From contig JBDRKE010000010.1 of NCBI GenBank assembly GCA_043814315.1, positions 2,896 through 66,895 on the forward strand: a stretch of 64,000 nt of DNA. The letters are read 5' to 3'. The position numbers and the translations under genes are program-made. Under the pieces are notes generated by a model. The model saw nothing but the letters and a program-made list of their open reading frames with translations, ran no database searches and was not told where the DNA came from. Shown here piece by piece: positions 993 through 35,782 of the stretch (its first letter is position 1; each line of letters begins with the position of its first letter). The stretch is from Candidatus Omnitrophota bacterium. Lineage in GTDB: Bacteria; Omnitrophota; Gorgyraeia; Gygaellales; Profunditerraquicolaceae.

Positions 993-1092
993 AGATAATA
1001 AATAGTTTTAAAAAGACTTGTTGCAAATCGCATGGTTCAAAACAAATCATCTTTCAAAAACCTATTTGTTTCAAATAAAACAGGAGGAAAAA

Positions 1093-4000
1093 ATGTCGCG
1101 TAAAGTCTTTTCTTGGCTCATTATTCTGTGCATGCTCTTCCAGCAGACCGGCTTTGCCCAGGGTCTTTCCCAATTAGAACTATCTAATTATTTTACTAAA
1201 TCATCCAATGCCTTTTCAGGGCCAGAGAAGTTTAGTCCCTTGCATTTACGGTATTTTTCCTATGACCCGCTCACGGATAACTTCCAAATTCTAATCGATA
1301 AGGGAGACGTAAAGGGAATCAAAGAAAGCCAGATTAAAGAACAAGGTCAGAGACTCCTAGAACATTTTCTTGTTGGTGTAGCTCTTCCTGATGACAATTT
1401 CTGGGTTAATCTGCGTCCTGACTCAGAAGACCAGGTTATTGACCCTGCATTAGCCAGGACTGATTTAGGAAAGGTTCTGCTGGAAGCCGACCTGCAGCTT
1501 AAGAAAGATGTTGCAAGGTTTACTTCTCCCCAGACTCCTGAAGGCAAAGATTATTGGAATAAACTATACCAGAAAGCTGAGCAGATTTTTGGCTCTGAAA
1601 ACGTAAATATTCCTGCTCTGGTACGTCCCTGGATAGTTCCGGGTGAAGTCATTATCCGCGAGAACGCAAATTCCGCTTATGTATATAAAGGAGTATTAAA
1701 GGTCATGCTTGAGCAGGATTACTTAAAAAACTCCGCTGACTATAACTTCAGTGACCCCCGGCTTAAAGAACTAAACGAATATTCTTCGCAATTAATCCGC
1801 GAAAAAATCATTCCTAAACTTACCAGAGAAGTGAACTCATCTTCCAGATACGCCTCCTTAAGGCAAGTTTTCTATTCCTTAATATTATCCCGCTGGTTTA
1901 AGCACAAGTTTGCGGGTGAAACCGGACAGTACGCAAGCCTGATTAACACCGGAAACCTAAGCGGCTTAACCTCTGAAGCATCATGGTCAAAAACAACATA
2001 TTTTAAAGAATATCAAAAGTCCTTTGCCAAGGGTGAATACAATATTAGAGAGCAAGTGAATGGAGCGATGGGGCCGGTTATCAGGACTTATTTTAGCGGC
2101 GGTGTGTCTCTTATGAAAAAAGATTTAGTGACACCTACGGTTATTGATTCGACTTCGCCAATAGCAACTTTTACTGGAAGCAGCCCTATGGTAACTGGTG
2201 GTTTAGGAAAAGATAAGATTTCTCTTGCCGGACAAGCAAACGGACAGATTGTGCCGGACTTAGAGGCTGGAGCATTGCCAATCAGTCCAGTGGAAGCGAA
2301 ACCTCGGGTTGCCAATTCGCCGATGGCACAAATAAGAACTGACTTTACAGTGCCGGAGGGCCAGAAACCAGGATTTTTTACTAGCGACTACCATTCGTAT
2401 GTGATAAGCGAGTTATTCGCAAATCCTGTCGAGCAGATTCCCGATGCAGTTGTGAACGCAGTCAAAAGAAAATTAAAAAAAGATATGGCGGAAGGAAAAA
2501 TATTAAGCGCAGAGGTAAATGATTATGGCGCTTCTGAAATAAGTATCCAGGTTACCCATAGGTTTGGCGAACTAAACGCTGCTGTCCAAAGATTGATCAT
2601 GGAAGCTATGAAAGAAGGAGCTTTAAAGGCCCAAGAACTTGGCCTGTTGAAAAAAGACATAAATATAGCTTCAATGAGCTTAGAGGATTTAGCCAAGAAC
2701 CTTAGAGTAAAACGCGAACCATATTCCATAACTGAGCGAGGCTCAGAGTCATTCGTAAGAGTTAAGTTGATTGGTGCTGCCATCGGAGCAGCCAATATTA
2801 AGCTCTATCATCAGTTTTTTATCCCTGGCGCTACGCCGTTACAACCGCTAGGGCTTCTCATTAAAGTGGATACTAAAAAGAAAGACAAGCTTCCTGTGCG
2901 CGGTTTTAGAGCTGTGGTGAGAAGAGTTGATGATGTCTTAAAGGGAAAACTTGACGGAGATGTTTGGGAATATGAAACGTCTGTAGAAGTAGAAATAGAT
3001 GGCGTAAAATATCCTGGTGTAGATCAAGGTCGCCAACTTTTAACCAAGGCTGGCCAGCCCAATGAGTTTCTTATTACTGAAGTTTATCCTGTAGAAGGCA
3101 GCCTTGTGACTTCAACCGAACCATTGGTTAAAGTAGTGTATCAGCCGGTTTATGGAGAAGATGGCAGCTTAAGAACACTTAATCCCACATTTTTGTGCAG
3201 AAGCCAAAGCGGCGCAGATGCTGTGGCTGGAGTTGCCAGCATGTTTTATGATGTTAATTTTGTTCCCGGTGGAAATAACGGAAAGCGTTATGTAGTCACA
3301 ATGCCGGTAACCAAAAAAGAGGCAAGGAAAGCTCCCCCTGAAGGGATTGCCTATGTTGTGGTTGACGGTTGGCAATTTAAGGGAAACGGCATCATCCCTC
3401 AGGAAAAAGACGGAGTTATTGATCATGTAGGTATAAATCCTCCTGCACTGCAACCCGAGCGAAAATTGGCTAAGTGGCTTGCGTCAATCATGACGACCCA
3501 TAAAAAGGACCAGCCATATATAGCTCCCTTTGCAGCAGAGGAAGAGGTTGAACCACTAAGAAAGGCGCAAAACCATCTTTTTAAGCGCGCGCCCAAGGAA
3601 GCAGATATAGACCTGGTTATGGATGAAGTAGAGGCAAAAGTGGAGAGCGGTAAATTAATATCTTTTCATGACATTAAAGCTGACATGGGAGGAAAAGATG
3701 GGCACAACTTTACTCCCGAATATATGTTGGCAATTGATAGGACATCGCAGATAGAAGCTATTGAAAAGGGAGAGATGACCGACGGAAACATCATCGGTTT
3801 TGTTGAAAAGAGCCGTTTAAAAAACGGTACAACTAACAGCATCGGTGATGATGAACATATTATATCATTAGGGGATAAATCGCGCAACGGTGCAAATGCG
3901 AACCAATCGTCGTTTACAGCATTGACGCGAGGTTATCTTGCGTCTATGGTAGGCAAAAGGACAGACTTCGATCCCGCAACTCCTTTAAATACGAAAGAGG

Positions 4001-5997
4001 CTTTGGAGAAGGCCGAGAAACCTTATGGTAGAGCTCAAGATTATGCCGGCAAAGAGGCAAAAGCAGCCATGGCCAATCCCTATTTTTATTCTCGTCTCAG
4101 CGAGCGTTTTTTTGAAATACTTAGAGACATTATGCCATTAGACTATAAGCAGATGGTTGAGAATATGTACAAGGGTTGGAAATATTGGCAGGAACACGGC
4201 ACTATCGGAGTCCTTCCCGATCCTTTTTCAGGCAATGTTTCCTCCCAAGGCATGGGCGCATCTCGTTATTTAGTGGACACAGCCAATGGCGAGAGGAGAG
4301 TTGGTATTCTGGCCGGAGATAAATGTGGGCCAGCAGGCATAAATAGGCCGATCAGAGAAGGAGTATATGCTTTAGGTGAGGCTTTACAAAATGGGACTGC
4401 TGACATTCCGGACTGGATAAAAGATAAAGCAGAACAACTGAAGGCTTTACAAAATGGGACTGCTTCTATTTCTATTGAAGATTGGATAAAAAAACATCTG
4501 CCCGGAGAAATGGAAGCTTTTCAAAAAGGGCTCATTTCTGTTAAAGATTTGATAGAAATGGGTAGAAAAGAACAAAAATATTTACTTGAGCTGTTGGCAA
4601 GCCTTAGGAAAAATGGTATGGTATTTGAGATATGGGATGCCAAGGCTTTTGATGAACACGGTAACATTGCTGTAAATGAAATACCGGAAAGTTATGCTGA
4701 TATTGCAGATGCCGTACCTGAATTAAAAGATGATGCAGGCCAAGATGATAAAGCAGGCCAAGATTTTATTAAAAGCTCTTATAAGGACGGATTCCTCAGG
4801 GGTGATTTGTCAACAGCTGATAAAGAAAAGTTAGCTGCATTGATAGAGAAATCAGGTTTTGTTCCCACCAAGAGGATATTCCTCGACGCTCAACAGGATA
4901 AGGCGGCAGTTGAGCTTTATTTAGCTGATTCTGACAGATTTAACATTAAGCAGGTATGGGCCAAAAATAAAGCCGGTTGGGATATTAATAATCCACAGGA
5001 TTATTTAGACAAGCCATTACTGGGTAGTTCAGTTACCAAATTAGGCATACTGGCAGGCGGAGAATATATTGGTAAAGATGATCCAGTTATGGCGGGAAAT
5101 ATCATACTGATGGAACATATCTACGCGTTTATTAAGAAGCATCCTGTTCTCCTTCAGGGAGATATGAATGGTTCGCATTGGTTAGCAGCTATTCCAACGG
5201 CATTTAAATATGCCGTGGCCAACAAGGAGAGCCACCCTATATTAGTAGGGATGGTCTATACTTTATCTGAAGATGGCAAAACCTTGGTCAGCGTTGAGGA
5301 TATTTTTGGTAAAAAGGATTATGCGCCTATTCGTAACAAGATGTTTAAGTTCAATTTTGAATTTAAGAAAGCTCAGTTGGGTGGTCAGTTTGAGCCCTAT
5401 GGCACTAACCGGCGCACAATAGAAGCAGCCTATCCTAAAAATAAACTGCTTAAGCAACTTGAAGACCCGCGTTCACCTTTTCTAATTAGGAATATGTTAC
5501 CTGAGAAGAGGAAATTAAGGCCCATTACTATGGTGGAGGCAACAGCCGAGCTTTTTAAGGTAGCCACTGCTGCCAGCCCGGCTACGGTTAAAGAAAGCGT
5601 TGAGCCTAACGGACAGGCGGGAAGCCCGGCAACGCAGCAGAACAAGGCCCAAGTTGCCCCAGGCGGTATTGACTTTCGCATTATACCTATGATTACCCAG
5701 CCCATGGGAAATCTTTCGGGCCTTAACTTTAGCCTGCCCAAGTTAGCTAATGTTGAGAGCATCAATCTTGAACAGGAATTCAGTCAAATTCAGAATATGC
5801 TTAAGGCCGGGATCACTCCTTCTTCGGAGCGCTTGAAGGAATACGTGGCTGCCTGTTATCAAAAAGGAGAGCTCAAAGAACACATAGAAGGGATAGTTGC
5901 GTGTTTGGTGGATATTTGCAAGTTGGAAGAGGAGAGAGTATCTGAAGCTGACAATGCATTGAAAGAAGTGTTACTTATCTTAGATGCAGTTGGATAA
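1093..5997 (+). CDS. Giant signal-peptide protein 1 (1634 aa): shared N-module, degenerate plus intact FBP aldolase/phosphatase-like domains, shared C-module
   Basis: Start moved from tracked 1018 to ATG 1093. The RBS GGAGGAAAAAATG and the first ~23 codons are conserved with the downstream paralog. MSRKVFSWLIILCMLFQQTGFAQ looks like a Sec signal peptide. Enzyme motifs are listed in the domain entries. Confidence 0.85.
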   Translation: MSRKVFSWLIILCMLFQQTGFAQGLSQLELSNYFTKSSNAFSGPEKFSPLHLRYFSYDPLTDNFQILIDKGDVKGIKESQIKEQGQRLLEHFLVGVALPDDNFWVNLRPDSEDQVIDPALARTDLGKVLLEADLQLKKDVARFTSPQTPEGKDYWNKLYQKAEQIFGSENVNIPALVRPWIVPGEVIIRENANSAYVYKGVLKVMLEQDYLKNSADYNFSDPRLKELNEYSSQLIREKIIPKLTREVNSSSRYASLRQVFYSLILSRWFKHKFAGETGQYASLINTGNLSGLTSEASWSKTTYFKEYQKSFAKGEYNIREQVNGAMGPVIRTYFSGGVSLMKKDLVTPTVIDSTSPIATFTGSSPMVTGGLGKDKISLAGQANGQIVPDLEAGALPISPVEAKPRVANSPMAQIRTDFTVPEGQKPGFFTSDYHSYVISELFANPVEQIPDAVVNAVKRKLKKDMAEGKILSAEVNDYGASEISIQVTHRFGELNAAVQRLIMEAMKEGALKAQELGLLKKDINIASMSLEDLAKNLRVKREPYSITERGSESFVRVKLIGAAIGAANIKLYHQFFIPGATPLQPLGLLIKVDTKKKDKLPVRGFRAVVRRVDDVLKGKLDGDVWEYETSVEVEIDGVKYPGVDQGRQLLTKAGQPNEFLITEVYPVEGSLVTSTEPLVKVVYQPVYGEDGSLRTLNPTFLCRSQSGADAVAGVASMFYDVNFVPGGNNGKRYVVTMPVTKKEARKAPPEGIAYVVVDGWQFKGNGIIPQEKDGVIDHVGINPPALQPERKLAKWLASIMTTHKKDQPYIAPFAAEEEVEPLRKAQNHLFKRAPKEADIDLVMDEVEAKVESGKLISFHDIKADMGGKDGHNFTPEYMLAIDRTSQIEAIEKGEMTDGNIIGFVEKSRLKNGTTNSIGDDEHIISLGDKSRNGANANQSSFTALTRGYLASMVGKRTDFDPATPLNTKEALEKAEKPYGRAQDYAGKEAKAAMANPYFYSRLSERFFEILRDIMPLDYKQMVENMYKGWKYWQEHGTIGVLPDPFSGNVSSQGMGASRYLVDTANGERRVGILAGDKCGPAGINRPIREGVYALGEALQNGTADIPDWIKDKAEQLKALQNGTASISIEDWIKKHLPGEMEAFQKGLISVKDLIEMGRKEQKYLLELLASLRKNGMVFEIWDAKAFDEHGNIAVNEIPESYADIADAVPELKDDAGQDDKAGQDFIKSSYKDGFLRGDLSTADKEKLAALIEKSGFVPTKRIFLDAQQDKAAVELYLADSDRFNIKQVWAKNKAGWDINNPQDYLDKPLLGSSVTKLGILAGGEYIGKDDPVMAGNIILMEHIYAFIKKHPVLLQGDMNGSHWLAAIPTAFKYAVANKESHPILVGMVYTLSEDGKTLVSVEDIFGKKDYAPIRNKMFKFNFEFKKAQLGGQFEPYGTNRRTIEAAYPKNKLLKQLEDPRSPFLIRNMLPEKRKLRPITMVEATAELFKVATAASPATVKESVEPNGQAGSPATQQNKAQVAPGGIDFRIIPMITQPMGNLSGLNFSLPKLANVESINLEQEFSQIQNMLKAGITPSSERLKEYVAACYQKGELKEHIEGIVACLVDICKLEEERVSEADNALKEVLLILDAVG
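2340..3450 (+). other. Degenerate FBP aldolase/phosphatase-like domain of giant protein 1
   Basis: IQVTHRFGELNAAVQRLIMEAMKEGALKAQELGL resembles the LIMTHTRGELD...AKDLGL region of the archaeal-type enzyme. The IKADIG start is absent, GDD is replaced by GAS, and the YxGKDD position reads YGEDGS. Confidence 0.45.
3650..5500 (+). other. FBP aldolase/phosphatase-like domain with catalytic motifs retained and large insertions
   Basis: ISFHDIKADMGGKDGH (Asp/His spacing as in SVIKADIGSLAGH), IGDDEH, DPFSGNV, EYIGKDDPVM (Tyr-x-Gly-Lys-Asp-Asp), MNGSHW. Confidence 0.7.
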
Positions 5998-6082
5998 GCC
6001 GTAACAACTTGAAAAATAATCCTGCAGCTGGAACGCAGGTGTTATATTTTAAATTTTGTTGTTCTTAACAAAGGAGAAAAAA

Positions 6083-9000
6083 ATGTCGCGTAAAGTCTTT
6101 TCTTGGCTCATTGTCCTGACCATGCTCTTCCAGCAGACCGGCTTTGCCCAGGTCGCTGCCGTTGAACTTAACCTCGCAGGCCAACTCTCTAAGATAGCCG
6201 GTAGCCTCACCACAGACACCTTCAGGCCCGTGCACATCCGCTTCTTCTCCTATGACGCAGCTAATGACGCCTTCAAGGTGATGCTGGACAAAGGAGACAC
6301 CAAGAACCTGACCGATACGCAGCTTAACGCCTCCAACAAGGTCCTCATGAATTATTTCCTCATAGGCGTTACCCTACCCAATGACAGCTTCTGGGTGAAC
6401 CTCAGGCCTGATTCAGAGGACAATATCATAGATAACTATTTAGCTAAGACAGACGTGGGCAAGGTTATGCTTGAGGCAGACCTTCAGCTTAAGAAAGACA
6501 CTGCCCGCTTCACCTCTCCTCAAACCCCTGAAGGAAGGGAATACTGGACCAAGCTCTACAAGAAGGCCGAGGAGCTCTACGGTTACGAGAACGTCAGCAT
6601 CCCAGCCCTCACCAGGCCCTGGATCGTGCCCAATGAGATTATCGTGCGTGAGACCGCAGGAAGCGCCTACATCTACAAGGCGACCCTCAAGGTCATGCTG
6701 GAGCAGGATTATCTGAAGGACTCCTCTGACTACAACTTCAAGGACACCCGCTCAAGACTCCTTAACGAATACTCCTCCCAGCTTATCCGTGAACTCATTC
6801 TACCTAAATTAACCAAGGAGGTGAACCTCTCCAAGACCTACGCCCCCTTAAGACAGGCCTATTATTCTCTTATTTTCTCCAGATGGTTCAAAACCCGGTT
6901 CGCTAACCAAACCGGCCAATACGCTTCCCTCATTGACTCCAGTAATCTTACAAATCTAACCTCTAAGACCTCTTGGTCTAAAGACACCTATTTCCAGGCC
7001 TACAAGAACTCCTTTGCCAAAGGAGAATACAACATCAGCGAGACCGTCCACACCCCCACAGGCCAGGTGATCCGCACCTACTTTAGTGGTGGAATCAAAA
7101 TCCTCCCTCAGAATCTACCCTATAGCGGCACTAGAGTTGCCGATTCTCCTATAACAGATGTCCTCTTAGGGGCAGGGTTGGTTGATCCCAATGCTTCTCT
7201 TCAACCTAATAAAATTGAAGCAGCTAGCCCAATACAAGTTAGTAGCCCAGACGATCTGTTACCGGTTATCACCAATAAAGGCATTAAACAAGCTATCATG
7301 GCTTTGGATTGGAATGTTTCGGTTAAGGACGGAAAAATCGTAGAAAATGAGCGCATTGTTAATTCTCTTGACACGATCAAGTGGGTATTTCAAGAGGCAG
7401 GATTAGATTACGCGTATGTGCTTACCCATTCCGGAAGGCCAAGCGGAAAAGGTTATGAAGAAGCCTTCACTTTAAGGCCTATGGCTAATGAGGCTGCCAG
7501 GCTTTTATCAGAAGCAGGTGTAAATAATGTAGAAGTCATAATGCTTCCCATCAACCTTACAGACGCAAAGACTTTAATTGACGCAAAGAAAGCAGAAGCT
7601 GCTGCTTCCAGAAAAAAAGTATTGTTTGTGGTCGAAAACGTTAGGATGTATGGTGGCGAACAATCCAAAAATCCGGCCGTGAGGGAGCAATTTGAAAGGG
7701 ACCTGATTGCCTTGACAGGGGAAACAACAGAAAAATTAATTTACCTAGAAGAAGCTTTTGACAAATCACATCGTGCTGAAGAAGCTTCCATGGAGATGGG
7801 TGCGTTGTTGTTTCCGAGAGAAAATATAGCAGCTGGAGTAAAGGTTGCTGATGAAGCTGAGAAAGTTCTGGATTTCTTAAGTAAAGCCACCGGTAAACTT
7901 GTCGTTATTGCCGGAGGCGCAAAGTTCGATAAATTAAAGAATATCGCTGATATCGGTAAACGCATTGGTTTAACTGGCGGTAAATTGTTTGTTGTCGGCG
8001 CATTGGCCAATCCTCTTTTAGACAACGCTGGCGTCAATGTCGGAAAATCCCTTATGCCGACCAAACCGGATGATGTAAAAGGATTTAAAGATGGCCAAAA
8101 GAAGTTGATAGAAAATACCAGAGACAATAAACTGCAATCTTCGCTTCCTGTTGATTTTGTGGTCAGGGAAGGCAAAGTTGTGAAAGACACACTTGAGCCT
8201 ACGGATGAACAGATAGACATCGGCCCCAAGACCATAAAAATGATTGTAGATTACATTAATTCTTTGAAAGCCGGGGACGGTATCCTCATGAACGGTGGAG
8301 CCGGCGTATTTGATAAAGAATGGGGTTCTAAAGCAGGCACCATTGCCATTGTAACCGCAGCCAATGAAGCAGCTGCCAGGGGTGTGGCCGTTTTGTTTGG
8401 CGGCGGCGATATGTTTAACGCGGTAAAGATCGTGCAGCGCGAAACAGGTTTAAGGCTCGATCCGTCAATAAAGATTTCGACGGCGGGAGGTGCGCTTTTT
8501 GTCGCCATTTCCAAGGGTGTAGGCGGAGGCCTTGTCCCTGTAAGAGCAACGATGAAATTTCCTGGAGAAGCAGAGAAGAAGTTGCTAGGTATATATTCTG
8601 CCGTGACAGAAGCAATTCCAGGAGCCATCGTATTACCGGTTGCAAGAACTCCCTATAAGGATACTTCTGTGGCTGGCGATGATTCCACCCGAGAGCCTGC
8701 TTTGGATTTGTCCAGAGGACCTGACGGGCATCGTCTTTTGATACCTGATGGTAGACGTGCGGATCTAATTAAGAATTTTTATGAGACGACTTTCTTGCCG
8801 GTCATTGTTACAGCCGAAGATGTCATGAATCTTTGGACTTCTGAGCAAGTTGCGGCATTCCAAGCAGCGAAGAAAGAGAAAGACGTTACGGCCTTTGCGC
8901 AACAACTTATAAGGCCCGTATTGGCCAGCAAAGGCATTCCTGCCCAAGAGTCGCAAGAACGTTCTCACGCGCTTGATCCGGGACTATTAGGAGAAGCGGC

Positions 9001-12000
9001 CGTGGATGTTTCTTCCATCATCGCGATCAGGACTTTGGCAGGTGATTTTCTGGGATGGATACCTGTCGTCATTAAGCGTGGAGAAGATAAGGCGCATGAA
9101 GCTTTGGGGCAAAAAATCGCCGTGAGCGCCGCCCAAGGCTTGGAAAAAACGGAAAAACAACCATTCGCTTTGCCGCCATCTATAGACATTTCCAACCACA
9201 ACAATGCCTTTAATGCGCTTAAAACATACAATCCACTCTTATTTGAAAAGTTACAAAATAATGATCTTCCCGCTATCCGTCTTTTAACCGGAATGATCAA
9301 TAATCTTGATCCTAAAGCCATGGTAGACCCCGGCGCGGCTGGAATTAAATTTGATAAACAGCTGGGAGTTTTCATTTCGGAAATGGACATGGATGCAAAA
9401 GCAACAGCGCCGGGTTTTGGGAAAAACCTGGAGCGTTTTCGAGGCAGCCTCTATGCCGTGGGTCAGACGAGCGCACGCCTGTACCATTTGCTGACTCCCA
9501 ATTACGATACGCAGAGGCAAGTGGGAATAGCTATTAAAAATAAAGACCTGCAGGATGCCGTTATCAAGTTTTACGCCCTTATGCAGAGGCACCTTTTGGA
9601 AGTAGCCATAAACTATTTTAAAGATGCACGCGTATTTGAGTCCTTGAGGGTTGAAATTGGTGATTATGCGCGAAGGTTAAATGAGGCCGTAAGAGAGGCA
9701 GATGCCCTTGAGCTAAGCCAGGCCAGCGGAGAGGATATCCTTATACATCTATCTGCAAAAGGTGTAGTATTATCTGCAAATGAGAAATTTCATATCTTAG
9801 AATTTATACATGGAAGCGGCGGCTTATTTGATGTGCTTCAATTAGCAGCTTTGATGAGGGCGGATAACTTTGTGCAGAGTTTCCGGCACATAAAGTTGGA
9901 TAATCCGTTAAAAGTCCTACCTTCAGATAAACCTTTCGAGGCATACGATGGTTCCGGACGCATCGGAAGGACACAGCTTGCCCAGCGGTTAGCAGCAGAT
10001 ATTAACGGCCAGGAGGAAGGTTATATTGGCAGGTATATGGTGGCCAGCCAAGAGCTTAAAGGTGAAAGTTTGCAAGAGAAATTTTTCACAGCTGTGCAAA
10101 AAGCTTCAGAAATGTTAAGCGACAGGCAGATTGAGGATGCGAAGCTGAATATTCAGCTTGGGACGGAATCTGCCGTATTAACCGACCTGATTAAGAACGG
10201 TCTGATGAGCTTTAGATTAGGAGCAAATGTTTTGGCGGCACAGCTGGACTTTCAAGATACGTATAAGGTTTCCAGTGTTTATCCTGTTCAAGTTAATCTT
10301 GATGGCCGAATGGTGGGTGTAATTTATTTTGTGGATATGGCCCAGTTTAAAGCAGGAATGGAAGTAGCGCTTAAAGCATCAGGAAGACAACTGGATAATA
10401 TCCCTCGTCCCTTCATTGTCCGGGGAGAAAATGATGAAGAAATTTTCTTTGGTTTAAGAGTGGATGCTACACCCGGTGGAGTAGAGATTGGGGATCAAGC
10501 TCTTGAGAAAGCCGGTGCCAAAGGAGCAGTTAAGCTTTCCGGCGACACTTTGTGGAAACTTTTTGCAAAGTCCAATTTGCCTGAAACCTATGGCGCGAAA
10601 TTAGGCGCGACGGATGAGCTGTCCCGCATAAGGCAGATTTATGAACATGTTAAGAACACCCGTATGCCGAAAGAAGGCGGAAAACAACTCATTTATGATA
10701 AAGCGCAAATTCCCAAGAGCATGTTATTGCCTGGATTTAACTTTATGGATAGGCATTTGGGTTGGGTTTTACCCTATGTAGGGGGTTCTGATGTTATGTA
10801 TATGACTCCGGGTTCTTGCTCAACCAATGGTGCGGCACACGCTATTTCCGCTTTAACCGGTTTCGCTGGGAATGCTGAATCTATTGGGCCCACCTTTCAT
10901 ATGTATACGTCAAGCGACAAAATCGTAGAGAAGAACCCTTACGGCCACACGGCGCTAAAATCAACTGGTGCAGCTAAAGGAGTGGTCTTATTGCTTTCAT
11001 TTGAAGAAGGCAGCCAAACCTTTTTTACGGCTATTCGTACGCCAACGGGTTTAGTAAAAGGCAAGGCAGATATTGTAGGCGGTTCAATCTTTGACCTTCT
11101 GGTTCGCTTGCCTAACAACATTCCTGAAAAATTAACAGTGCGTTATTTATCGCGTATAGCCGCTGAATTTCCTCAAGATCTGCTCATGTTTACTCCCGAA
11201 GATATGAGAGAAGGTAGTTACACCTGGCAAGACACCATTGCCGGGCAAAGGACAGGTTCAATTCTCTATAAGAATTTTATTGAGAGGGTTGCTCCCAACA
11301 CTTTGCGTATAAAAGTCGGTTACGACAATGAGTTTAGTTTTGCCACTATGGAAAAAACCATGCATGACGCGGTATATCTGGATGCCAAGCGCAATCGTCA
11401 GACAGCCCAAATGGCAGAAGTATTGGATGCAGCCTTAACATACTCAGCTTCCTCTCCGGCTACGACGCCTATTCTAGAAAAGTTAAACTTGATGATCACG
11501 ACGGTTACCCCTTCACAAACCACTACTTTAGGTAAGCCTGCACTTAGATTAGACATGGGATTAGCCGGCGGCGCAAAAGGTCATTTTGTAGTTCCCGCAG
11601 GAACTTCTACCGGCGAGGATGAGGCAAAAACTATTTTGGATAGATTTGGCTTTGGCCGAGTCCTTAAAAACATAGTCAAGATTCATTCAGCAGTGATGGA
11701 GGAAGGATTGGTGGCTGATGAATTAGCAGAAATCGGCCAGCTCATGTTAAATATGAGTAAGGACGAATTAGGTGCCGAGGTCACTCTCTCTTATCAAATG
11801 TCATCAGCTTGGGCAGCAGCCAGTCAAAAAGGCCTGCAGAATTACGAGTTCGTCCGCGAGATGGCTCCTGACCTTGCTTCTAAGGGCGTTCCGGTAACAA
11901 AGATACAGCAGAATAATACTAATGGCGGACAACATGCGCCCAACAGTTTAGACATGCAGGAATTTATGGTTGTCCCTATTGGCAAAACAACGGCAGAATC

Positions 12001-13312
12001 AAACAAGATGGGAGACAATATAGATCGGGCCCTTGGGTTTATCTACCAGCAAATGGGTTTAAAAGCCAACCCCGATGATAAAGGCGTAGGTGAGTTGAGG
12101 GGCAAGGAGGGCGGATACAAAATAGGGGACCTGACAAATGATAAGTTAAAGGAAATTTATCAAAAGGCAGGTTCATATAACATTAAGAATTTAGACATCG
12201 TCGCCTTGAGAGATCAAGGAGTAGGGGTGCATGAGTTTGTGTTGAATTGCCAGATGGCTGCCATTCGAAACGCTGGGTATGTTCCGTCTACATCTGGAGA
12301 GGTTAGAACTGTAGCATTGGCTTTGGACCCAGCAGCCACTTCCATGTTAGTGGAAGGTCATGACAATCTTTACAATTTTGAAGGGCGCCAGATTACCAGC
12401 AAAGAGTTAGTTGCCATATACAAAAAGTGGGCAGAAAAATATCCGATTGATTCTCTTGAGGACGGCTTAGGGGAGAACGATTGGGAAGGCTGGCTGGACC
12501 TCGTTGAAGCAGTGGGAGACAAAGTCATGGTGATTACTGATGATCTTACTGTCTCTCAGGCAGGCCGATTCCTCAGATTTATTGATATGTTAAAACAAAG
12601 AGGATTTATTGGGCCGGATGGTAAGGTGACAAAGAGGATAGGTATTCTCATCAAGTTAAACCAGAACGGATTCTTGACTACGGGTATTAATGATCCTGCG
12701 AAAGGTTGGTTGGGAACTATAGAAGTTATCCGAATCGCAAAAAAATATGGTATTAAATGGATCGTATCGCATCGCTCTAATGAAGCAGGGCCTGAAGAGA
12801 ATGAAGTTTCCATCGCTGAGCTTGCTGCAGGCACAGACGCGTATGCTTTGAAATCAGGAGACCACGTGCAAGCTGTGCGAGCTGTCAAGGAAGATCGCTT
12901 AGCTGAGATTGATGCCCGGGAAAGAAACAAGGCTGCCGCCTCTCCCATGACACCCGGCGGTATTGACTTCCGCGGCAAACCCATGAACATCACCTATGAG
13001 CCTTTGGGTAACTTCTCCGAGCTTAACCTGAAACTACCCACGCTAAGCAAGAAGGAATTAGCTAGCTTTGATGTTGAGAGCGAGTTAAGGCAGATAGAGA
13101 ATATGGTTAACAGGAAGCTCCTTCCTTCAGGAGCGCGCGTCAAAGAGCTCCTGGCTGCCTGCTCGCAAAAAGGAGAGCTGAATAGGATGCAGGAGCGCGT
13201 CATGGTGCTCTTGATCAAGATGGGCATCCTTGAAGAAAGCGCCTGCTGCACCCAAGAGGCCAGCAGGGAGTACAAAGAAGCCCTGATCCTGGTGGATTCA
13301 TTGGTCAGTTAG
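6083..13312 (+). CDS. Giant signal-peptide protein 2 (2409 aa): shared N-module, PGK, unassigned module, GAPDH-like domain, enolase, shared C-module
   Basis: Start set at ATG 6083 using the RBS AAGGAGAAAAAAATG conserved with gene 1. Signal peptide MSRKVFSWLIVLTMLFQQTGFAQ. Enzyme motifs are listed in the domain entries. Confidence 0.85.
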   Translation: MSRKVFSWLIVLTMLFQQTGFAQVAAVELNLAGQLSKIAGSLTTDTFRPVHIRFFSYDAANDAFKVMLDKGDTKNLTDTQLNASNKVLMNYFLIGVTLPNDSFWVNLRPDSEDNIIDNYLAKTDVGKVMLEADLQLKKDTARFTSPQTPEGREYWTKLYKKAEELYGYENVSIPALTRPWIVPNEIIVRETAGSAYIYKATLKVMLEQDYLKDSSDYNFKDTRSRLLNEYSSQLIRELILPKLTKEVNLSKTYAPLRQAYYSLIFSRWFKTRFANQTGQYASLIDSSNLTNLTSKTSWSKDTYFQAYKNSFAKGEYNISETVHTPTGQVIRTYFSGGIKILPQNLPYSGTRVADSPITDVLLGAGLVDPNASLQPNKIEAASPIQVSSPDDLLPVITNKGIKQAIMALDWNVSVKDGKIVENERIVNSLDTIKWVFQEAGLDYAYVLTHSGRPSGKGYEEAFTLRPMANEAARLLSEAGVNNVEVIMLPINLTDAKTLIDAKKAEAAASRKKVLFVVENVRMYGGEQSKNPAVREQFERDLIALTGETTEKLIYLEEAFDKSHRAEEASMEMGALLFPRENIAAGVKVADEAEKVLDFLSKATGKLVVIAGGAKFDKLKNIADIGKRIGLTGGKLFVVGALANPLLDNAGVNVGKSLMPTKPDDVKGFKDGQKKLIENTRDNKLQSSLPVDFVVREGKVVKDTLEPTDEQIDIGPKTIKMIVDYINSLKAGDGILMNGGAGVFDKEWGSKAGTIAIVTAANEAAARGVAVLFGGGDMFNAVKIVQRETGLRLDPSIKISTAGGALFVAISKGVGGGLVPVRATMKFPGEAEKKLLGIYSAVTEAIPGAIVLPVARTPYKDTSVAGDDSTREPALDLSRGPDGHRLLIPDGRRADLIKNFYETTFLPVIVTAEDVMNLWTSEQVAAFQAAKKEKDVTAFAQQLIRPVLASKGIPAQESQERSHALDPGLLGEAAVDVSSIIAIRTLAGDFLGWIPVVIKRGEDKAHEALGQKIAVSAAQGLEKTEKQPFALPPSIDISNHNNAFNALKTYNPLLFEKLQNNDLPAIRLLTGMINNLDPKAMVDPGAAGIKFDKQLGVFISEMDMDAKATAPGFGKNLERFRGSLYAVGQTSARLYHLLTPNYDTQRQVGIAIKNKDLQDAVIKFYALMQRHLLEVAINYFKDARVFESLRVEIGDYARRLNEAVREADALELSQASGEDILIHLSAKGVVLSANEKFHILEFIHGSGGLFDVLQLAALMRADNFVQSFRHIKLDNPLKVLPSDKPFEAYDGSGRIGRTQLAQRLAADINGQEEGYIGRYMVASQELKGESLQEKFFTAVQKASEMLSDRQIEDAKLNIQLGTESAVLTDLIKNGLMSFRLGANVLAAQLDFQDTYKVSSVYPVQVNLDGRMVGVIYFVDMAQFKAGMEVALKASGRQLDNIPRPFIVRGENDEEIFFGLRVDATPGGVEIGDQALEKAGAKGAVKLSGDTLWKLFAKSNLPETYGAKLGATDELSRIRQIYEHVKNTRMPKEGGKQLIYDKAQIPKSMLLPGFNFMDRHLGWVLPYVGGSDVMYMTPGSCSTNGAAHAISALTGFAGNAESIGPTFHMYTSSDKIVEKNPYGHTALKSTGAAKGVVLLLSFEEGSQTFFTAIRTPTGLVKGKADIVGGSIFDLLVRLPNNIPEKLTVRYLSRIAAEFPQDLLMFTPEDMREGSYTWQDTIAGQRTGSILYKNFIERVAPNTLRIKVGYDNEFSFATMEKTMHDAVYLDAKRNRQTAQMAEVLDAALTYSASSPATTPILEKLNLMITTVTPSQTTTLGKPALRLDMGLAGGAKGHFVVPAGTSTGEDEAKTILDRFGFGRVLKNIVKIHSAVMEEGLVADELAEIGQLMLNMSKDELGAEVTLSYQMSSAWAAASQKGLQNYEFVREMAPDLASKGVPVTKIQQNNTNGGQHAPNSLDMQEFMVVPIGKTTAESNKMGDNIDRALGFIYQQMGLKANPDDKGVGELRGKEGGYKIGDLTNDKLKEIYQKAGSYNIKNLDIVALRDQGVGVHEFVLNCQMAAIRNAGYVPSTSGEVRTVALALDPAATSMLVEGHDNLYNFEGRQITSKELVAIYKKWAEKYPIDSLEDGLGENDWEGWLDLVEAVGDKVMVITDDLTVSQAGRFLRFIDMLKQRGFIGPDGKVTKRIGILIKLNQNGFLTTGINDPAKGWLGTIEVIRIAKKYGIKWIVSHRSNEAGPEENEVSIAELAAGTDAYALKSGDHVQAVRAVKEDRLAEIDARERNKAAASPMTPGGIDFRGKPMNITYEPLGNFSELNLKLPTLSKKELASFDVESELRQIENMVNRKLLPSGARVKELLAACSQKGELNRMQERVMVLLIKMGILEESACCTQEASREYKEALILVDSLVS
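7260..8560 (+). other. Phosphoglycerate kinase domain of giant protein 2
   Basis: LTHSGRPSGKGYEEAFTL (canonical SHLGRP), VENVRMYGGE, EAFDKSHRAEAS, IAGGAKFDKL, MNGGAGVFD, FGGGDM, STAGGAL. Confidence 0.85.
8640..9940 (+). other. Unassigned ~430-aa module between the PGK and GAPDH-like domains
   Basis: I recognised no family motif. TPI (AYEPVWAIGTG) and phosphoglycerate mutase signatures were not seen. Confidence 0.3.
9940..11400 (+). other. GAPDH-like domain with insertions
   Basis: GSGRIGR (cf. GFGRIGR), TPGSCSTNGAAHAISAL (cf. SNASCTTNCLAP, Cys retained), KSTGAAKG (cf. SSTGAAKA), FDLLVRL, KVGYDNEFSFA (cf. SWYDNEWGYS). Confidence 0.65.
11500..12930 (+). other. Enolase domain of giant protein 2
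   Basis: VPAGTSTGEDEA, MQEFMVVP, GKEGGY, ALDPAATS, SLEDGL, ITDDL, IKLNQNG, VSHRSNEAG...ELAAG, LKSGD. These correspond to the enolase metal and catalytic positions. Confidence 0.85.
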
Positions 13313-13813: not shown

Positions 13814-14764
13814 ATGTTCAGGGAAAAGATTAAGGTATTGGATTGCACCATCAGAGACGGCGGTCTGATCAATAACCACGATTTTGACTTCAGGTTTGTG
13901 CGCGCGGTGTACAAGGCGCTTTCTGAGGCAGGCGTGGATTACATGGAGATGGGTTATAAGAACTCCAAAAGGCTGTTTTCACAGAAAGAGTTCGGCACGT
14001 GGAAGTTTTGCGATGACGATGCCATTAAGAAAGTCATTGACGGGATCGAATCGAATACGAAGATTTCCGTTATGGTGGACGTGGACAGGGTGGATGCCGA
14101 GGATGTCTCACCGCGTAAGGAAAGCCCTGTTTCTATGATCAGGGTGGCTTCTTATGTCAAGGATATTGACAAGGCCATATATTTGGTGAACCATTTTGCG
14201 GATAAGGGTTATGAGACTACGGTTAATATCATGGCTATATCGCGCGCCCTGGATAACGAATTGACAGAAGCCTTGGAGCAGTTAGAAAAAGAAAGCAAGG
14301 CCGATTGTATATATATAGTGGATAGTTTTGGCGCCTTGTATCAGGAAACAACGGAGTTCCTTATCAAGAAAGCCAAGAGCATCATTAAGACCAAAGAGAT
14401 AGGAATACACGCCCATAACAACCAGCAGCTTGCCTTTGGCAACACCATTGAAGCGATCATCCATGATGCGAATTTTGTTGACGGCACTGTCTATGGCTTA
14501 GGCAGGGCTGCGGGGAATTGTCCTTTGGAGCTCATCCTTGGGTTTTTAAAGAATCCCAAGTTTGATATCCGGCCGGTTCTGGATTTGATTTCCAAAGAGT
14601 TCATCCCTTTGCGGGAAAAAATGGAATGGGGTTATATCATCCCTTACGCGATCACGGGTATTTTGGATGAGCATCCGCGCGCAGCCATGGCTTTACGCGG
14701 CAGCGATAAGAAAGAAAACTACCGGGAGTTTTACGAAAGCCTGATTACAGAGGTCGAGGAATAG
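13814..14764 (+). CDS. HMGL-like (DRE-TIM metallolyase / pyruvate carboxyltransferase-type) aldolase family protein
   Basis: N-terminal VLDCTIRDGG motif and a TIM-barrel-like length. GGAGAGGAG RBS. Confidence 0.6.
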   Translation: MFREKIKVLDCTIRDGGLINNHDFDFRFVRAVYKALSEAGVDYMEMGYKNSKRLFSQKEFGTWKFCDDDAIKKVIDGIESNTKISVMVDVDRVDAEDVSPRKESPVSMIRVASYVKDIDKAIYLVNHFADKGYETTVNIMAISRALDNELTEALEQLEKESKADCIYIVDSFGALYQETTEFLIKKAKSIIKTKEIGIHAHNNQQLAFGNTIEAIIHDANFVDGTVYGLGRAAGNCPLELILGFLKNPKFDIRPVLDLISKEFIPLREKMEWGYIIPYAITGILDEHPRAAMALRGSDKKENYREFYESLITEVEE

Positions 14765-14767
14765 GAA

Positions 14768-15400
14768 ATGGATGTGCCCCGTTTTAAAAAGCAGCCTGTT
14801 ATGGGGATTGTGCGCGGCGTAGAATCAGGGCAGATTGAGCCGCTTGTGGAAGCCGTTATTCAATCCGGTTTGCAGGCTTTGGAGATTACTATGAACACTC
14901 CAGGGGCCGCGGAAATAATCCGTAAGGCCAGGAAACTGGCTGGCAATCGTCTTATGCTGGGCGCAGGCACAGTGCTGGATACGGATAGTTTAATGCAGGC
15001 CTTAGATTCCGGAGCCACCTTCATTGTTATGCCTGTGCTCGTCGAGGATGTGCTTGGGTTTTGCGTTAAAAATAAGATACCTGCTTTTCCCGGAGCTTGC
15101 ACACCCCAGGAAATTTATAACGCCTGGCAGGAAGGCGCAACCATGGTCAAGGTCTTTCCTGCCAGATTCTTCGGGCCACAGTATTTTCGCGAAATCAAAG
15201 GGCCATTTCAAGAGATTGAACTTATGGCTGTGGCCGGCGTCACCCCGCAAAATATGCGGGAATATTTTAGTTGCGGCGCCTCTGCCATAGCCTTCGGCGC
15301 AAGCGTGTTCAAGAAAGAGTGGCTGGAAAAGAAAGACTACGCAAGTATTGGCTCAGCCATAAAAGCCTACCTGCAGCAACCATTGATAGAAGCGGCATAA
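14768..15400 (+). CDS. eda: KDPG/KHG aldolase (2-dehydro-3-deoxyphosphogluconate aldolase family)
   Basis: PVMGIVRG, LEITMNTPGA, GAGTVL, FIVMP, GACTPQE, VKVFPA, typical Eda-family pattern, ~210 aa. Confidence 0.8.
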   Translation: MDVPRFKKQPVMGIVRGVESGQIEPLVEAVIQSGLQALEITMNTPGAAEIIRKARKLAGNRLMLGAGTVLDTDSLMQALDSGATFIVMPVLVEDVLGFCVKNKIPAFPGACTPQEIYNAWQEGATMVKVFPARFFGPQYFREIKGPFQEIELMAVAGVTPQNMREYFSCGASAIAFGASVFKKEWLEKKDYASIGSAIKAYLQQPLIEAA

Positions 15401-15418
15401 AAGAGAAGGAGGGGCACA

Positions 15419-15721
15419 GTGTTTGTTCTGTCTAATCTTCTGATGGCGGCAGGCCACGTCCTTGATGTGCTTCTGACGATCCTGTACTGGCTGATATTAA
15501 TCCGGGCGCTGCTCAGCTGGGTCAACCCCGATCCTTATAATCCCATTGTGCAGTTTCTCTATAAGGCCACCGAACCTATCTTGCATCCGATACGCAGGAT
15601 TCTTCCTTCAAATTTTAGGTTCGGAATAGATATATCCCCGATCATTGCTTTTCTCGCTATCATGTTCCTTAAGTCTTTCCTGGTCAGGTCTCTTTTTGAC
15701 TTGGCCGCGAGATTGCCATAA
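15419..15721 (+). CDS. yggT: YggT family membrane protein
   Basis: ILIRALLSWVNPDPYNPI motif, two hydrophobic segments. GTG start after an AGGAGG RBS. Confidence 0.8.
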   Translation: MFVLSNLLMAAGHVLDVLLTILYWLILIRALLSWVNPDPYNPIVQFLYKATEPILHPIRRILPSNFRFGIDISPIIAFLAIMFLKSFLVRSLFDLAARLP

Positions 15722-15785
15722 CTCTGCGAGAAGGGTATCCGTTCCTATCCGGTAAAATGAGATTGAATCTTGGGAGTAAAATCGC

Positions 15786-15814
15786 TTGGGATTTCAGGAT
15801 TAAAGAGGTATAAT
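15786..15814 (+). promoter_or_regulatory. Candidate promoter TTGGGA-17 bp-TATAAT
   Basis: TTGGGA at 15786..15791 and TATAAT at 15809..15814, upstream of the small ORF at 15866. Confidence 0.4.
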
Positions 15815-15865
15815 TATTACCCATGAAGGCAAGGGTTCAAATGCCTTAAAAAAGAGGAGGCGACT

Positions 15866-16048
15866 GTGGATAACGAAAATCAGGGGAGCATGGTGGAGCG
15901 GGGAGAATATAAAGGCAAGCCGCTTATTATCCTTAAGAGAAACGAAGAGGATAAATTTCCGTTTTCCTTTGGGCTCACCAAAGCCAAGCTCATATTGGAT
16001 AATATCGAAGAGATAAAGAAGTTTGTAGAAGAGAACGCTGCGGGATAG
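15866..16048 (+). CDS. Hypothetical small protein (60 aa)
   Basis: GTG start 7 nt after an AGAGGAGG RBS. No recognised motif. Confidence 0.45.
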   Translation: MDNENQGSMVERGEYKGKPLIILKRNEEDKFPFSFGLTKAKLILDNIEEIKKFVEENAAG

Positions 16049-16059
16049 GACGGCTGCCA

Positions 16060-16422
16060 ATGAAAAAAAACAAGAAGATCGATTGCGCTGAATGTAAAAT
16101 TCAGTCCGCATGTTGCCGGATCGGCGCATGGATTGATTTAGAGGAGGCCAAGAAAATACTGACTCTCGGCATAAAGGGAGGGGATTTTTTTCATTTTGAA
16201 AAAGATAACAGCTTTCCTTCAGGATACAAGGTCGGCACGAGCCTTGAGGATGAGCCATGCAGCTTTATCGCTCGTGACGGCCTGTGCGCTATCCATAAGA
16301 TTGATTATAGCCTCAAGCCCGTCACGTGCAAAGAGTTTCCCTATGAAGACGGCAGGTTATCTTCTTTTGCCCCGTATCTGTGCGAGGTTGCGAGATCAAG
16401 AAGCAAAAAGAATAAGAAATAA
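16060..16422 (+). CDS. YkgJ-family cysteine-cluster (zinc/iron-chelating) protein
   Basis: CAECKIQSACC (CxxCxxxxCC) plus downstream Cys residues. Confidence 0.65.
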   Translation: MKKNKKIDCAECKIQSACCRIGAWIDLEEAKKILTLGIKGGDFFHFEKDNSFPSGYKVGTSLEDEPCSFIARDGLCAIHKIDYSLKPVTCKEFPYEDGRLSSFAPYLCEVARSRSKKNKK

Positions 16423-16440
16423 CCGAACTTGCCCCCCTCC

Positions 16441-17403
16441 ATGCTTCAAATCGGTAACCTAAAATTGGAATCCAGATTGATCCTTGCTCCCATGGCCGGG
16501 ATAACGGATTTACCGTTTCGCCTGCTGAACCGGCGTTTCGGGTGCGAACTGGCTTTTATTGAAATGTTGAATGTGCGTTCCTTAAGTTATAAAAGCCGAA
16601 AGACTCAAGAGATGTTGTCCTCGGTTCCTGAGGATCGGCCTTTGGGCATACAGATATTAGGCAAGGAACCCAAATTCATTTTAAGGGCATTGGATATCCT
16701 TAAGCCCTATAAATTCGATGTTTTGGATTTTAATGCGGCCTGCCCCGTAAAGAAGGTCGTCCGTCGGGGAGAGGGGGCCAGTCTCCTGAGGGAGCCAAAA
16801 AGATTAGGTACGCTGCTGAAATTAATCGTAAAAAATTCCCAGCAGCCGGTGACCGTCAAGATCCGAAGCGGCTGGGATGATACATCGGTTAATGCCAGAG
16901 AAGTGGCTCTGCGGGCCGAAGATGCAGGGGTTAAAGCCTTGTTCATTCACGGAAGGACAAAGGCCCAGGGATATAGCGCAGGCGTTGATTATGCGGCTAT
17001 CCGCAAGGTCAGGGAGGCCCTGAAAATCCCCGTCATTGGCAGCGGCGACATCTTATCCATTCCTTTAGTTAAGAGGATGTTTGATGAAACAGGTTGCCAA
17101 GCCGTAGCTATGGCGCGCGGAGCTCTAGGTAATCCCTGGATATTCAGGGAGGCAAAACAATTTTTAGAGAAGCAAGAGATAATCCAGAGGCCTAGCCGGG
17201 AAGAGATTATCAAGGTGATGATTGCCCACTTAAAGTCCTATGTTGATTTTCACGGGGAGAGGGTGGGTATTATCAAATTCCGCAAGTTCTTTGGCTGGTA
17301 TGTTAAGGGATTCCGCAAGATCAGGCCGTTAAGAGAAAGATCCTCCCGCGTCAAGAAGGCGCAAGAGATGATTGAGATTATCCGGTTGACGAGTGCGTCC
17401 TGA
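16441..17403 (+). CDS. dusB: tRNA-dihydrouridine synthase
   Basis: LAPMAGITDLPFRLL, NAACPVKKV, HGRTKAQ motifs. ATG 16441 is preferred over the tracked TTG 16429. Confidence 0.85.
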   Translation: MLQIGNLKLESRLILAPMAGITDLPFRLLNRRFGCELAFIEMLNVRSLSYKSRKTQEMLSSVPEDRPLGIQILGKEPKFILRALDILKPYKFDVLDFNAACPVKKVVRRGEGASLLREPKRLGTLLKLIVKNSQQPVTVKIRSGWDDTSVNAREVALRAEDAGVKALFIHGRTKAQGYSAGVDYAAIRKVREALKIPVIGSGDILSIPLVKRMFDETGCQAVAMARGALGNPWIFREAKQFLEKQEIIQRPSREEIIKVMIAHLKSYVDFHGERVGIIKFRKFFGWYVKGFRKIRPLRERSSRVKKAQEMIEIIRLTSAS

Positions 17404-17481
17404 TGTATTAAAGCTTAATCTAAAGATAATTAACAACGTTGCCGAAAAAAAGCATCCGAATTTAATAAGGAGAGAGAAGCC

Positions 17482-19182: not shown

Positions 19183-19220
19183 AGATAGGCCCATCTTTTG
19201 GGGCCTCTGAAGGTGTAGCT

Positions 19221-35673: not shown

Positions 35674-35765
35674 TCAAGATCGGGTCTTGAAATTGCTTGG
35701 TGCAAAACAAGTTACAAGACCCGATCTTGAGATGGCAAGTTTCGGACATTGGGATTTGGGATTTA
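35674..35765. repeat. Family-1 hairpin (CAAGATCGGGTCTTG...CAAGACCCGATCTTGA) plus a family-2 right arm
   Basis: Stem at 35674..35731, followed by GATGGCAAGTTTCGGACATTGGGATTTGGGATTT. That tail is the reverse complement of 44468..44497. Confidence 0.8.
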
Positions 35766-35782
35766 TTCATGAGGTAAGATCA

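Follow-up and report, generated by a model that had tools for sequence, protein, structure and literature searches.

A candidate two-domain extension of a divergent glyceraldehyde-3-phosphate dehydrogenase in a glycolytic megaprotein of an Omnitrophota bacterium

Introduction

What does a long region without any recognizable family do in the middle of a polypeptide that is built from glycolytic enzymes? This question is raised by a locus in a stretch of 64,000 nucleotides (the window, whose positions are used for the coordinates below) of contig JBDRKE010000010.1, assembly GCA_043814315.1, from a Candidatus Omnitrophota bacterium. One long open reading frame (ORF) of the plus strand, 6056..13312, holds the whole feature. 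Translation probably starts at the ATG at 6083 (MSRKVF), which gives a gene at 6083..13312 (+) encoding 2,409 amino acids (aa). This start is likely because the identical database protein P0003 is also 2,409 aa long. The ORF list, the translation, the identity with P0003 and the Pfam and NCBIfam matches together define a megaprotein composed of, in order, a signal-peptide-like start, a head shared with other proteins, phosphoglycerate kinase (PGK), the unmatched region (hereafter the module), a domain resembling glyceraldehyde-3-phosphate dehydrogenase (GAPDH), enolase and a shared tail.

An earlier reading of the window (the original prediction) recognized no motif in the module and considered it a candidate for a non-homologous replacement of triosephosphate isomerase (TPI) or phosphoglycerate mutase, for a regulatory or binding domain, or for a structural spacer. 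We analyzed homologues, profiles and predicted structures of the region. The most probable answer, in our view, is that the module is a non-catalytic, two-domain N-terminal extension of an unusual GAPDH, in which a dead copy of the catalytic domain would serve as a built-in pseudo-subunit and/or a regulatory pocket and a helical domain would brace the enzyme.

A conserved and rare module without a known family

The unmatched long region between PGK and the GAPDH-like domain is real and comprises aa 833-1298 of the frame (about 466 aa; 8552-9949). The two peptides by which it had been delimited are in frame in the ORF 6056..13312 (+); ARTPYKDTSVAGDD corresponds to aa 863-876 (8642-8683) and KVLPSDKPFEAYD to aa 1286-1298 (9911-9949). 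The region had thus been placed correctly, but not its start, which had been put at 8640. The domain begins about 30 aa earlier, at aa ~833-836 (~8552-8561), right after the C-terminus of PGK.

No family in Pfam, NCBIfam or the PDB sequences accounts for the module. It gave nothing in Pfam at E<=10, and its stretch gave nothing in NCBIfam at E<=0.1 when the whole protein was searched. Against the PDB sequences, the single sequence matched nothing and a profile from an alignment of 19 module rows (A1) found nothing significant (best E 0.15); ESM Atlas yielded no usable match. None of the 19 aligned family members matched a Pfam family, Gp_dh_C included, better than E 0.02. In phmmer, the module found only itself, both in all frames of the window and in the six-frame translation of the genome. 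Comparison of hidden Markov models by hhalign also revealed no sequence-level link of the module to the GAPDH-like, PGK or enolase profiles (probability <1%).

Homologues do exist. Searching 1.84 billion representatives in full with HMMER gave 24 proteins at E<=1e-3 including the query protein, 19 of them at E<=1e-30, and a word-indexed search added five more homologues, giving 28 non-self homologues (P0004-P0031) with identities down to ~25%. Most of these combine several enzymes in a long chain, of up to 5,785 aa, and the shorter ones look like fragments. Their public names, where given, do not go beyond "phosphoglycerate kinase" or "enolase"; one homologue carries the label Candidatus Omnitrophota. 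The mean identity to the query is 0.42 for the first part of the module and 0.46 for the second part, and 0.48 and 0.56 for the NAD-binding and catalytic halves of the GAPDH-like region, respectively. Among 301 genomes sampled from the phylum, the module was found in three, this genome included; it was found in none of the 41 other genomes of the same family, nor in the same-genus genome G245. In the third genome that has it (G215, C31:4000-12000), the module lies in a 1,029-aa frame that overlaps the next frame, of 848 aa, by ~140 nucleotides. Neither frame has a Pfam match, and the overlap may reflect a frameshift or two genes. The 28 homologues together with the confident predicted fold described below indicate that the module is not chance ORF sequence. 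Thus, the module is real, conserved and rare.

The module is coupled to the GAPDH-like region

We mapped pieces of the query protein onto the 28 homologues. The GAPDH-like region begins within 80 aa of the module end in 26 of them, and the two exceptions (P0014, 413 aa; P0026, 536 aa) stop inside or at the module. PGK, which in the query protein occupies aa 411-816 (7286..8503, +; PF00162, E 3.3e-50; profile from the 21-row alignment A2 described below against PDB PGK chains, E 6e-52), lies directly upstream of the module in only 14 of the 28. In homologues without an upstream PGK, no common or Rossmann-like element was found before the module. Furthermore, the search for a complete free-standing GAPDH-like protein of 276-879 aa found none; the two matches were one labelled partial and one on a contig of 2,029 bases. 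Because the coupling to the GAPDH-like region holds in 26 of 28 homologues, as against 14 of 28 for an upstream PGK, and no complete free-standing GAPDH-like protein was found, the module and the GAPDH-like region form one evolutionary unit of about 970 aa. The constant partner of the module is GAPDH, not PGK.

This bears on the idea that the module is a connector or channelling scaffold, which sets PGK beside GAPDH or docks other parts, for example for the hand-over of labile 1,3-bisphosphoglycerate. The host proteins do string consecutive glycolytic enzymes together, and besides the 14 homologues with PGK directly upstream, several others carry it elsewhere in the chain. However, the constancy lies with GAPDH: PGK comes after the GAPDH-like part in P0016, P0020 and P0023, and in P0021 it lies ~760 aa further on, after PFK and TIM. 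We regard a scaffold as the principal role of the module as improbable.

P0029, a metagenomic homologue of 3,050 aa, is a single chain that, with its precomputed Pfam matches, comprises a cupin-type glucose-6-phosphate isomerase (PF06560), TIM, PGK, the module, the GAPDH-like region and enolase. Judged from these matches, P0029 appears to carry a near-complete lower glycolysis on one polypeptide.

The first part of the module is predicted to have the fold of a GAPDH catalytic domain

Structure prediction and a fold search, which had been suggested as checks, gave an answer where the sequence searches had not. The AlphaFold2 model of the module, made from the 19 rows of A1, has a predicted local distance difference test score (pLDDT) of 88.1 and a predicted template modelling score (pTM) of 0.69, and only 10 of its 466 residues have a pLDDT <50. 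The model consists of two parts. Part 1 (aa 836-1009, model residues 4-177; 8561..9082, +) resembles the catalytic domain of GAPDH in VIA-align and Foldseek, and part 2 (aa 1011-1278, model residues 179-446; 9086..9889, +) is a long connecting helix followed by a helical bundle, as assigned by DSSP in the models.

In Foldseek against the PDB, the matches listed for the module were all GAPDH, erythrose-4-phosphate dehydrogenase (E4PDH) or dehydrogenase-titled entries that we take as GAPDH-like (E 1.7e-3 to 5e-3). Among 48,161 representative chains, VIA-align aligned model residues 5-177 with 7bex_A 148-314 (Z 8.3), 8jb1_B 286-449 (Z 8.3) and the archaeal 2czc_A 139-299 (Z 7.8), and GAPDH took ranks 4, 6 (both Z 8.3) and 11 (Z 7.8). 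When the top Foldseek chains were re-scored, 258 of 993 reached Z>=8, and among the 50 matches listed all were GAPDH, E4PDH or taken as GAPDH-like, with Z 8.5-9.5. These re-scored alignments comprise 126-147 residues with a root-mean-square deviation of 2.9-4.9 A, and model residues 4-177 span the whole catalytic domain (chain residues ~146-317). The DSSP strings, read by eye, give part 1 the same order of helices and strands as the live catalytic domain of the same protein. Thus, the models show part 1 with a predicted GAPDH catalytic-domain fold. There was no TIM-barrel chain among the structural matches listed for the module, although absence from that list does not exclude the fold.

For part 2 (residues ~200-450), VIA-align found only generic helical matches (Z 6.4-8.9). 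It carries a conserved loop, S1108-x-x-D1111...PGFGKNLE (9410-9433), and N1209, E1243, D1259 and K1280 are also conserved. In part 1, the conserved polar motifs are DTSxxGxDxxRxPALDL and QxRSHxLD.

These results leave little room for the view that the region is a disordered or poorly conserved spacer, or no real feature at all. The module matches no database family, as one would expect of such a spacer, but pLDDT values of 88-91, conservation nearly as high as that of the NAD-binding half of GAPDH, and conserved motifs across the 28 homologues all speak against it, and its probability is negligible. The poor conservation and disorder that had been considered as an outcome were therefore not found.

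The catalytic residues of GAPDH are missing from the module

We take the catalytic pair of GAPDH to be Cys149 and His176. In the module, Cys occupies half or more of the rows in no alignment column. His does so only at columns 139, 216 and 399 (11/19, 13/19 and 14/21, respectively) and is never invariant. Module columns 5-8, which align with the Cys149 region, are variable (G/E/D/A/T) and lie at the start of the first helix. A Rossmann domain is also missing: residues 179-446 are helical by DSSP, the consensus has no GxGxxG, and the first GxGxxG of the region is the GSGRIGR at aa 1299, just past the module. The module was matched by none of the GAPDH families PF00044, PF02800 and TIGR01534. 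We therefore read part 1 as a pseudo-catalytic, or dead, domain, judging from the aligned residues.

A divergent GAPDH follows and is predicted to fold with the module into one body

The region downstream of the module (aa 1299-1800; 9950..11455, +) was assigned from TIGR01534, the A2 profile against the PDB, Foldseek and invariant residues. Pfam and NCBIfam give a weak type-I GAPDH match at aa 1585-1764, and TIGR01534 has E 4.4e-5 and 22.8 bits against a curated cut-off of 367. Because it falls below the curated family cut-offs, the region is a divergent member. The profile of A2 (21 rows, built from stored proteins by id) matches the PDB GAPDH 7bew_A 145-326 with E 1e-7. GSGRIGR lies at 9950-9970, Cys1588 at 10817-10819 and His1615 at 10898-10900. 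Invariant or near-invariant in the 21 rows are G467 and G469 of GSGRIGR, S-C-S, the His (H783), parts of STGAAK, R829 and Y-D-N, which presumably belong to the catalytic and phosphate sites of GAPDH. A model of the 968-aa unit, module plus GAPDH-like region, matches GAPDH chains in Foldseek with E ~1e-12 and a template modelling (TM) score, on the target, of 0.64-0.71. By the model and these residues, aa 1299-1800 are a divergent GAPDH that keeps the fold, GxGxxG, Cys and His. The stretch from GSGRIGR to the catalytic Cys (9950-10816; aa 1299-1587) exceeds its counterpart in the matched GAPDH chains of ~335 aa by about 140 aa; this enlarged stretch is predicted with high confidence and has a long beta-hairpin at unit residues 572-595.

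The unit model has a pLDDT of 90.9 and a pTM of 0.92, as against a pTM of 0.69 for the module alone. The gain in pLDDT from the module alone to the unit is seen in blocks: residues 41-50 rise from 73 to 85, 51-60 from 76 to 94, 201-210 from 69 to 86, and 451-460 from 59 to 94. Residues 41-60 are the loop region carrying DTSxxGxDxxRxPALDL. This supports the prediction that the module and the GAPDH-like region fold into one compact body.

The module is not a likely replacement for TPI or phosphoglycerate mutase

The original prediction noted that canonical TPI and phosphoglycerate mutase signatures were absent from the protein. This was confirmed, as no TIM or mutase family matched anywhere in it in Pfam or NCBIfam; on both the module and the whole protein, PF00121 gave no match, nor did PF00300, PF01676, PF06415 and PF10143. 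The assembly, which is 88.67% complete, likewise has no PF00121 match and no match to the TIM segments of the homologues. Together with the invariant polar residues of the module, the missing TIM might argue that the module itself is the replacement enzyme. This proposal did not hold up, and we consider it very unlikely. A canonical TIM domain is present in the same polypeptide as the module in six homologues (P0004, P0005, P0021, P0027, P0028 and P0029), P0019 combines the module with an iPGM domain, and a giant frame of genome G270 combines it with an apgM domain. This genome also has two apgM-type mutase genes (NF003242, E 2.1e-167; TIGR00306, E 5.6e-123). Furthermore, a module found in three of 301 genomes is not common enough to be a general replacement, it is constantly coupled to GAPDH, and its predicted fold is that of a dead GAPDH-like domain and a helical bundle.

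The genomic context gives the missing TPI another explanation. TPI is not the only gap, since this assembly has no canonical GAPDH or PGK either; its only PGK and GAPDH-like domains are those of the megaprotein. A weak Gp_dh_C match at 35687-36796, obtained in the genome-wide search, was rejected as a GAPDH, as PF01118 and PF02774 identify an ordinary aspartate-semialdehyde dehydrogenase there. In G270 and G215, gap, pgk and tpi are side by side, and pgk and tpi are adjacent in G057 and in the same-genus G245. The pgk-tpi block of G245 (contig C24) was not found in this assembly, and the gene beside that block has copies near the starts of two contigs here. Because gap, pgk and tpi are jointly missing here yet adjacent in relatives, an operon that is present but unassembled is probably the simplest explanation. 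A real loss of the canonical genes, with dependence on the megaprotein for the sole PGK and GAPDH, is possible.

Proposed role of the module

In a normal GAPDH, which is a tetramer, the partner surfaces come from neighbouring subunits. We propose that the dead copy of the catalytic domain would supply in cis the partner surface that is otherwise provided by the tetramer neighbours, and that it may, additionally or instead, serve as a pocket for regulation. Support for the enlarged NAD-binding domain would come from the helical domain. In this way, a normally oligomeric enzyme could work inside single-chain glycolytic megaproteins, PGK-GAPDH-enolase and larger. The regulatory or binding domain and the structural element that had been offered as options both fit what is seen.

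A related idea is that the module is an allosteric or sensor extension, in which the pocket of the dead copy binds a metabolite (triose phosphate, 1,3-bisphosphoglycerate, NAD(H) or similar) and in this way modulates the live GAPDH. The same fold and coupling evidence applies to it, and the polar motifs (DTSxxGxDxxRxPALDL, QxRSHxLD and S..D..PGFGKNLE) are conserved beyond what a plain spacer would need. On the other hand, none of the phosphate-site motifs that we take as typical of GAPDH is visible in the module consensus. As the whole explanation we hold this to be rather unlikely, if less so than a connector; it overlaps the extension with a built-in pseudo-subunit and does not exclude it. 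Indeed, the pseudo-subunit, allosteric and connector readings overlap one another.

Comparison with a dead and live GAPDH pair and with other enzymes

A comparable arrangement was found in the genome G270 (C8:8000-23500), where one open frame, part of an ORF of 23,636 aa, carries two GAPDH copies in tandem, upstream of the frame's own module. In the first copy, Cys and His are absent from the expected motifs, yet Gp_dh_C recognizes it (E 1.2e-8). The second is intact and has SCTTN, the conserved His, STGAA and WYDNE. The two copies find each other in phmmer (3.4e-8). The order in the frame is dead GAPDH, live GAPDH, PGK, enolase and apgM-type mutase, followed ~800 aa further on by the module and GAPDH-like unit, so that two GAPDH systems occur in one frame. 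The PGK of this frame has its C-terminal part (profile positions 283-376) before its N-terminal part (8-278), and from this order it looks circularly permuted.

As in the G270 pair, the module would be a degenerate copy without catalytic residues that is immediately followed, within one polypeptide, by an intact copy. The two cases also differ. The G270 dead copy can be recognized as a GAPDH, extends back into the NAD-binding domain and resembles its partner in sequence, whereas the module keeps only the predicted catalytic-domain fold, has no sequence similarity, and has a helical domain of ~250 aa added. Similarly, model residues 4-177 superpose on the whole catalytic domain of phosphorylating GAPDH (PF02800; PDB 1gd1, 7bex and 2xf8; Z 8.5-9.5), but the module has no detectable sequence similarity to it, no Cys and His, and a helical bundle instead of a Rossmann domain of its own.

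Mammalian hexokinase I and eukaryotic PFK-1 are duplicated glycolytic enzymes in which one half has turned regulatory. They resemble the present case in that a glycolytic enzyme is fused to a non-catalysing, degenerate copy of itself or of part of itself. Unlike in the module, their duplication covers the full length, the similarity in sequence is clear, and an allosteric role has been demonstrated; in the module, one domain would have been copied, and its role is proposed from the fold and the coupling.

Several points weigh against our interpretation and keep it at the level of a probable one. At the level of sequence, the pseudo-domain shows homology to no GAPDH: in hhalign, its profile reaches P 0.12 (local) and 0.85 (global) with the profile of the live catalytic domain and P 0.46 with the dead copy of G270, and 0 of the 19 module family members has a Gp_dh_C match. 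When the sub-domains were compared with each other and with the dead and live GAPDH copies of G270, hhalign linked nothing except live with live (94.5%), so that a sequence bridge from the pseudo-domain to the G270 dead copy was not found. The scores of the structural matches are moderate. When the module was compared with the PDB in Foldseek, there were 0 matches at E<=0.001 (best 1.7e-3, with a TM score of 0.2-0.3 over the whole model), and Z 8-9.5 is barely above the level that the tool calls common, although in the model these moderate scores cover a complete domain and point to the enzyme that is encoded next door. Because the same fold class also occurs in aspartate-semialdehyde dehydrogenase, at a lower Z of 6.7 in VIA-align, descent from GAPDH itself, by duplication of its catalytic domain, is only what we infer. 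The invariant polar residues S1108, D1111, N1209 and E1243 of the helical domain could mark a ligand or catalytic site. Finally, the high pTM of the unit is a prediction from an alignment of 21 rows, and a contact of the module with the live GAPDH in the manner of a GAPDH subunit interface is a proposal.

A relation to previously described giant proteins is evident. West-Roberts et al. (bioRxiv 10.1101/2023.11.21.568195) described giant Omnitrophota proteins including 'Archaeovorin'; according to their main text, such proteins contain domains with homology to TPI, glucose-phosphate isomerase, FBPase, PGM/PMM, FBP aldolase and a pyruvate-phosphate kinase. One homologue of the module likewise lies in a giant frame, that of 23,636 aa. 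That main text, supplements aside, contains no "phosphoglycerate", "enolase" or "GAPDH" and does not describe the module. Seymour et al. 2023 (PMC10066038) mention Embden-Meyerhof glycolysis, and the parts seen contain no "fused", "glyceraldehyde" or "triose". In the literature that we searched, we found no description of the module or of a GAPDH with a fused dead copy of its catalytic domain.

The host protein and its surroundings

The enolase domain occupies aa 1826-2292 (11531..12931, +; PF03952 and PF00113; TIGR01060, E 7.8e-57), and the shared C-terminal PGGIDF tail, identified by phmmer, occupies aa 2300-2418 (12953..13309, +). The N-terminus reads like a signal peptide and is predicted as such from the sequence. 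The shared frame consists of a head of ~340-390 aa and the PGGIDF tail of ~120 aa. Head and tail were matched by phmmer in five other six-frame ORFs of this genome (E 1e-151 to 2e-7), of which one is interrupted by a stop; they are common to six proteins of the genome and are also present in several homologues. Thus, the host protein is a member of a group of Omnitrophota enzyme carriers framed by this head and tail. Four further head- and tail-framed proteins lie on other contigs at C5:24004-36675 (4,224 aa), C24:251-3541 (1,097 aa), C33:48792-54005 (1,738 aa) and C33:26628-30509 (1,112+181 aa, stop-split). Between head and tail, these four have no Pfam domain, and only one sub-threshold TAT-signal match was seen.

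On the opposite strand, the ORF list has two antisense ORFs inside the module region, 8965..9390 (-) and 9284..9592 (-); the conserved frame is that of the plus strand. The neighbouring gene 1018..5997 has two FBPase_3 stretches in Pfam. Downstream genes (13814-20495) are carbohydrate-flavoured and include an HMGL-like aldolase, a KDPG/KHG aldolase, Dus, a carbohydrate-phosphorylase-like protein and a TamB-like protein. A search of sequencing runs listed seven, all guessed to be DNA and none an RNA run; six carry part of the stretch, and none carries at least half of its words.

Implications

That giant Omnitrophota proteins contain domains of glycolytic enzymes was already known from the main text of 10.1101/2023.11.21.568195; the module, and a GAPDH with a probable fused dead copy of its catalytic domain, appear to be new. 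About 460 residues that are nameless in public records, in proteins named as a whole only "phosphoglycerate kinase" or "enolase", gain a predicted structural assignment. In pathway reconstructions for such genomes, this stretch should not be counted as a gap-filling enzyme. The GAPDH unit of ~970 aa is now defined well enough for expression and testing.

More tentatively, the pairing of a dead copy with a live copy may be a rule by which Omnitrophota megaproteins are generally built. Enzymes that normally need an oligomer (GAPDH, FBP aldolase/phosphatase) might be made single-chain in this way, the module being the most diverged example, with an added helical domain. Such units might be strung into glycolytic assembly lines of one polypeptide, perhaps with hand-over of labile intermediates and, given the export-like leader, perhaps outside the cytoplasm. 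We hold this wider view to be possible, with clearly less confidence than the proposed role of the module itself. If our interpretation is correct, a core-metabolism enzyme that is normally tetrameric would have been rebuilt as a self-contained module for giant fusion proteins, and the module and the G270 pair would be two cases of a dead copy with a live one, pointing to a design rule rather than a curiosity.

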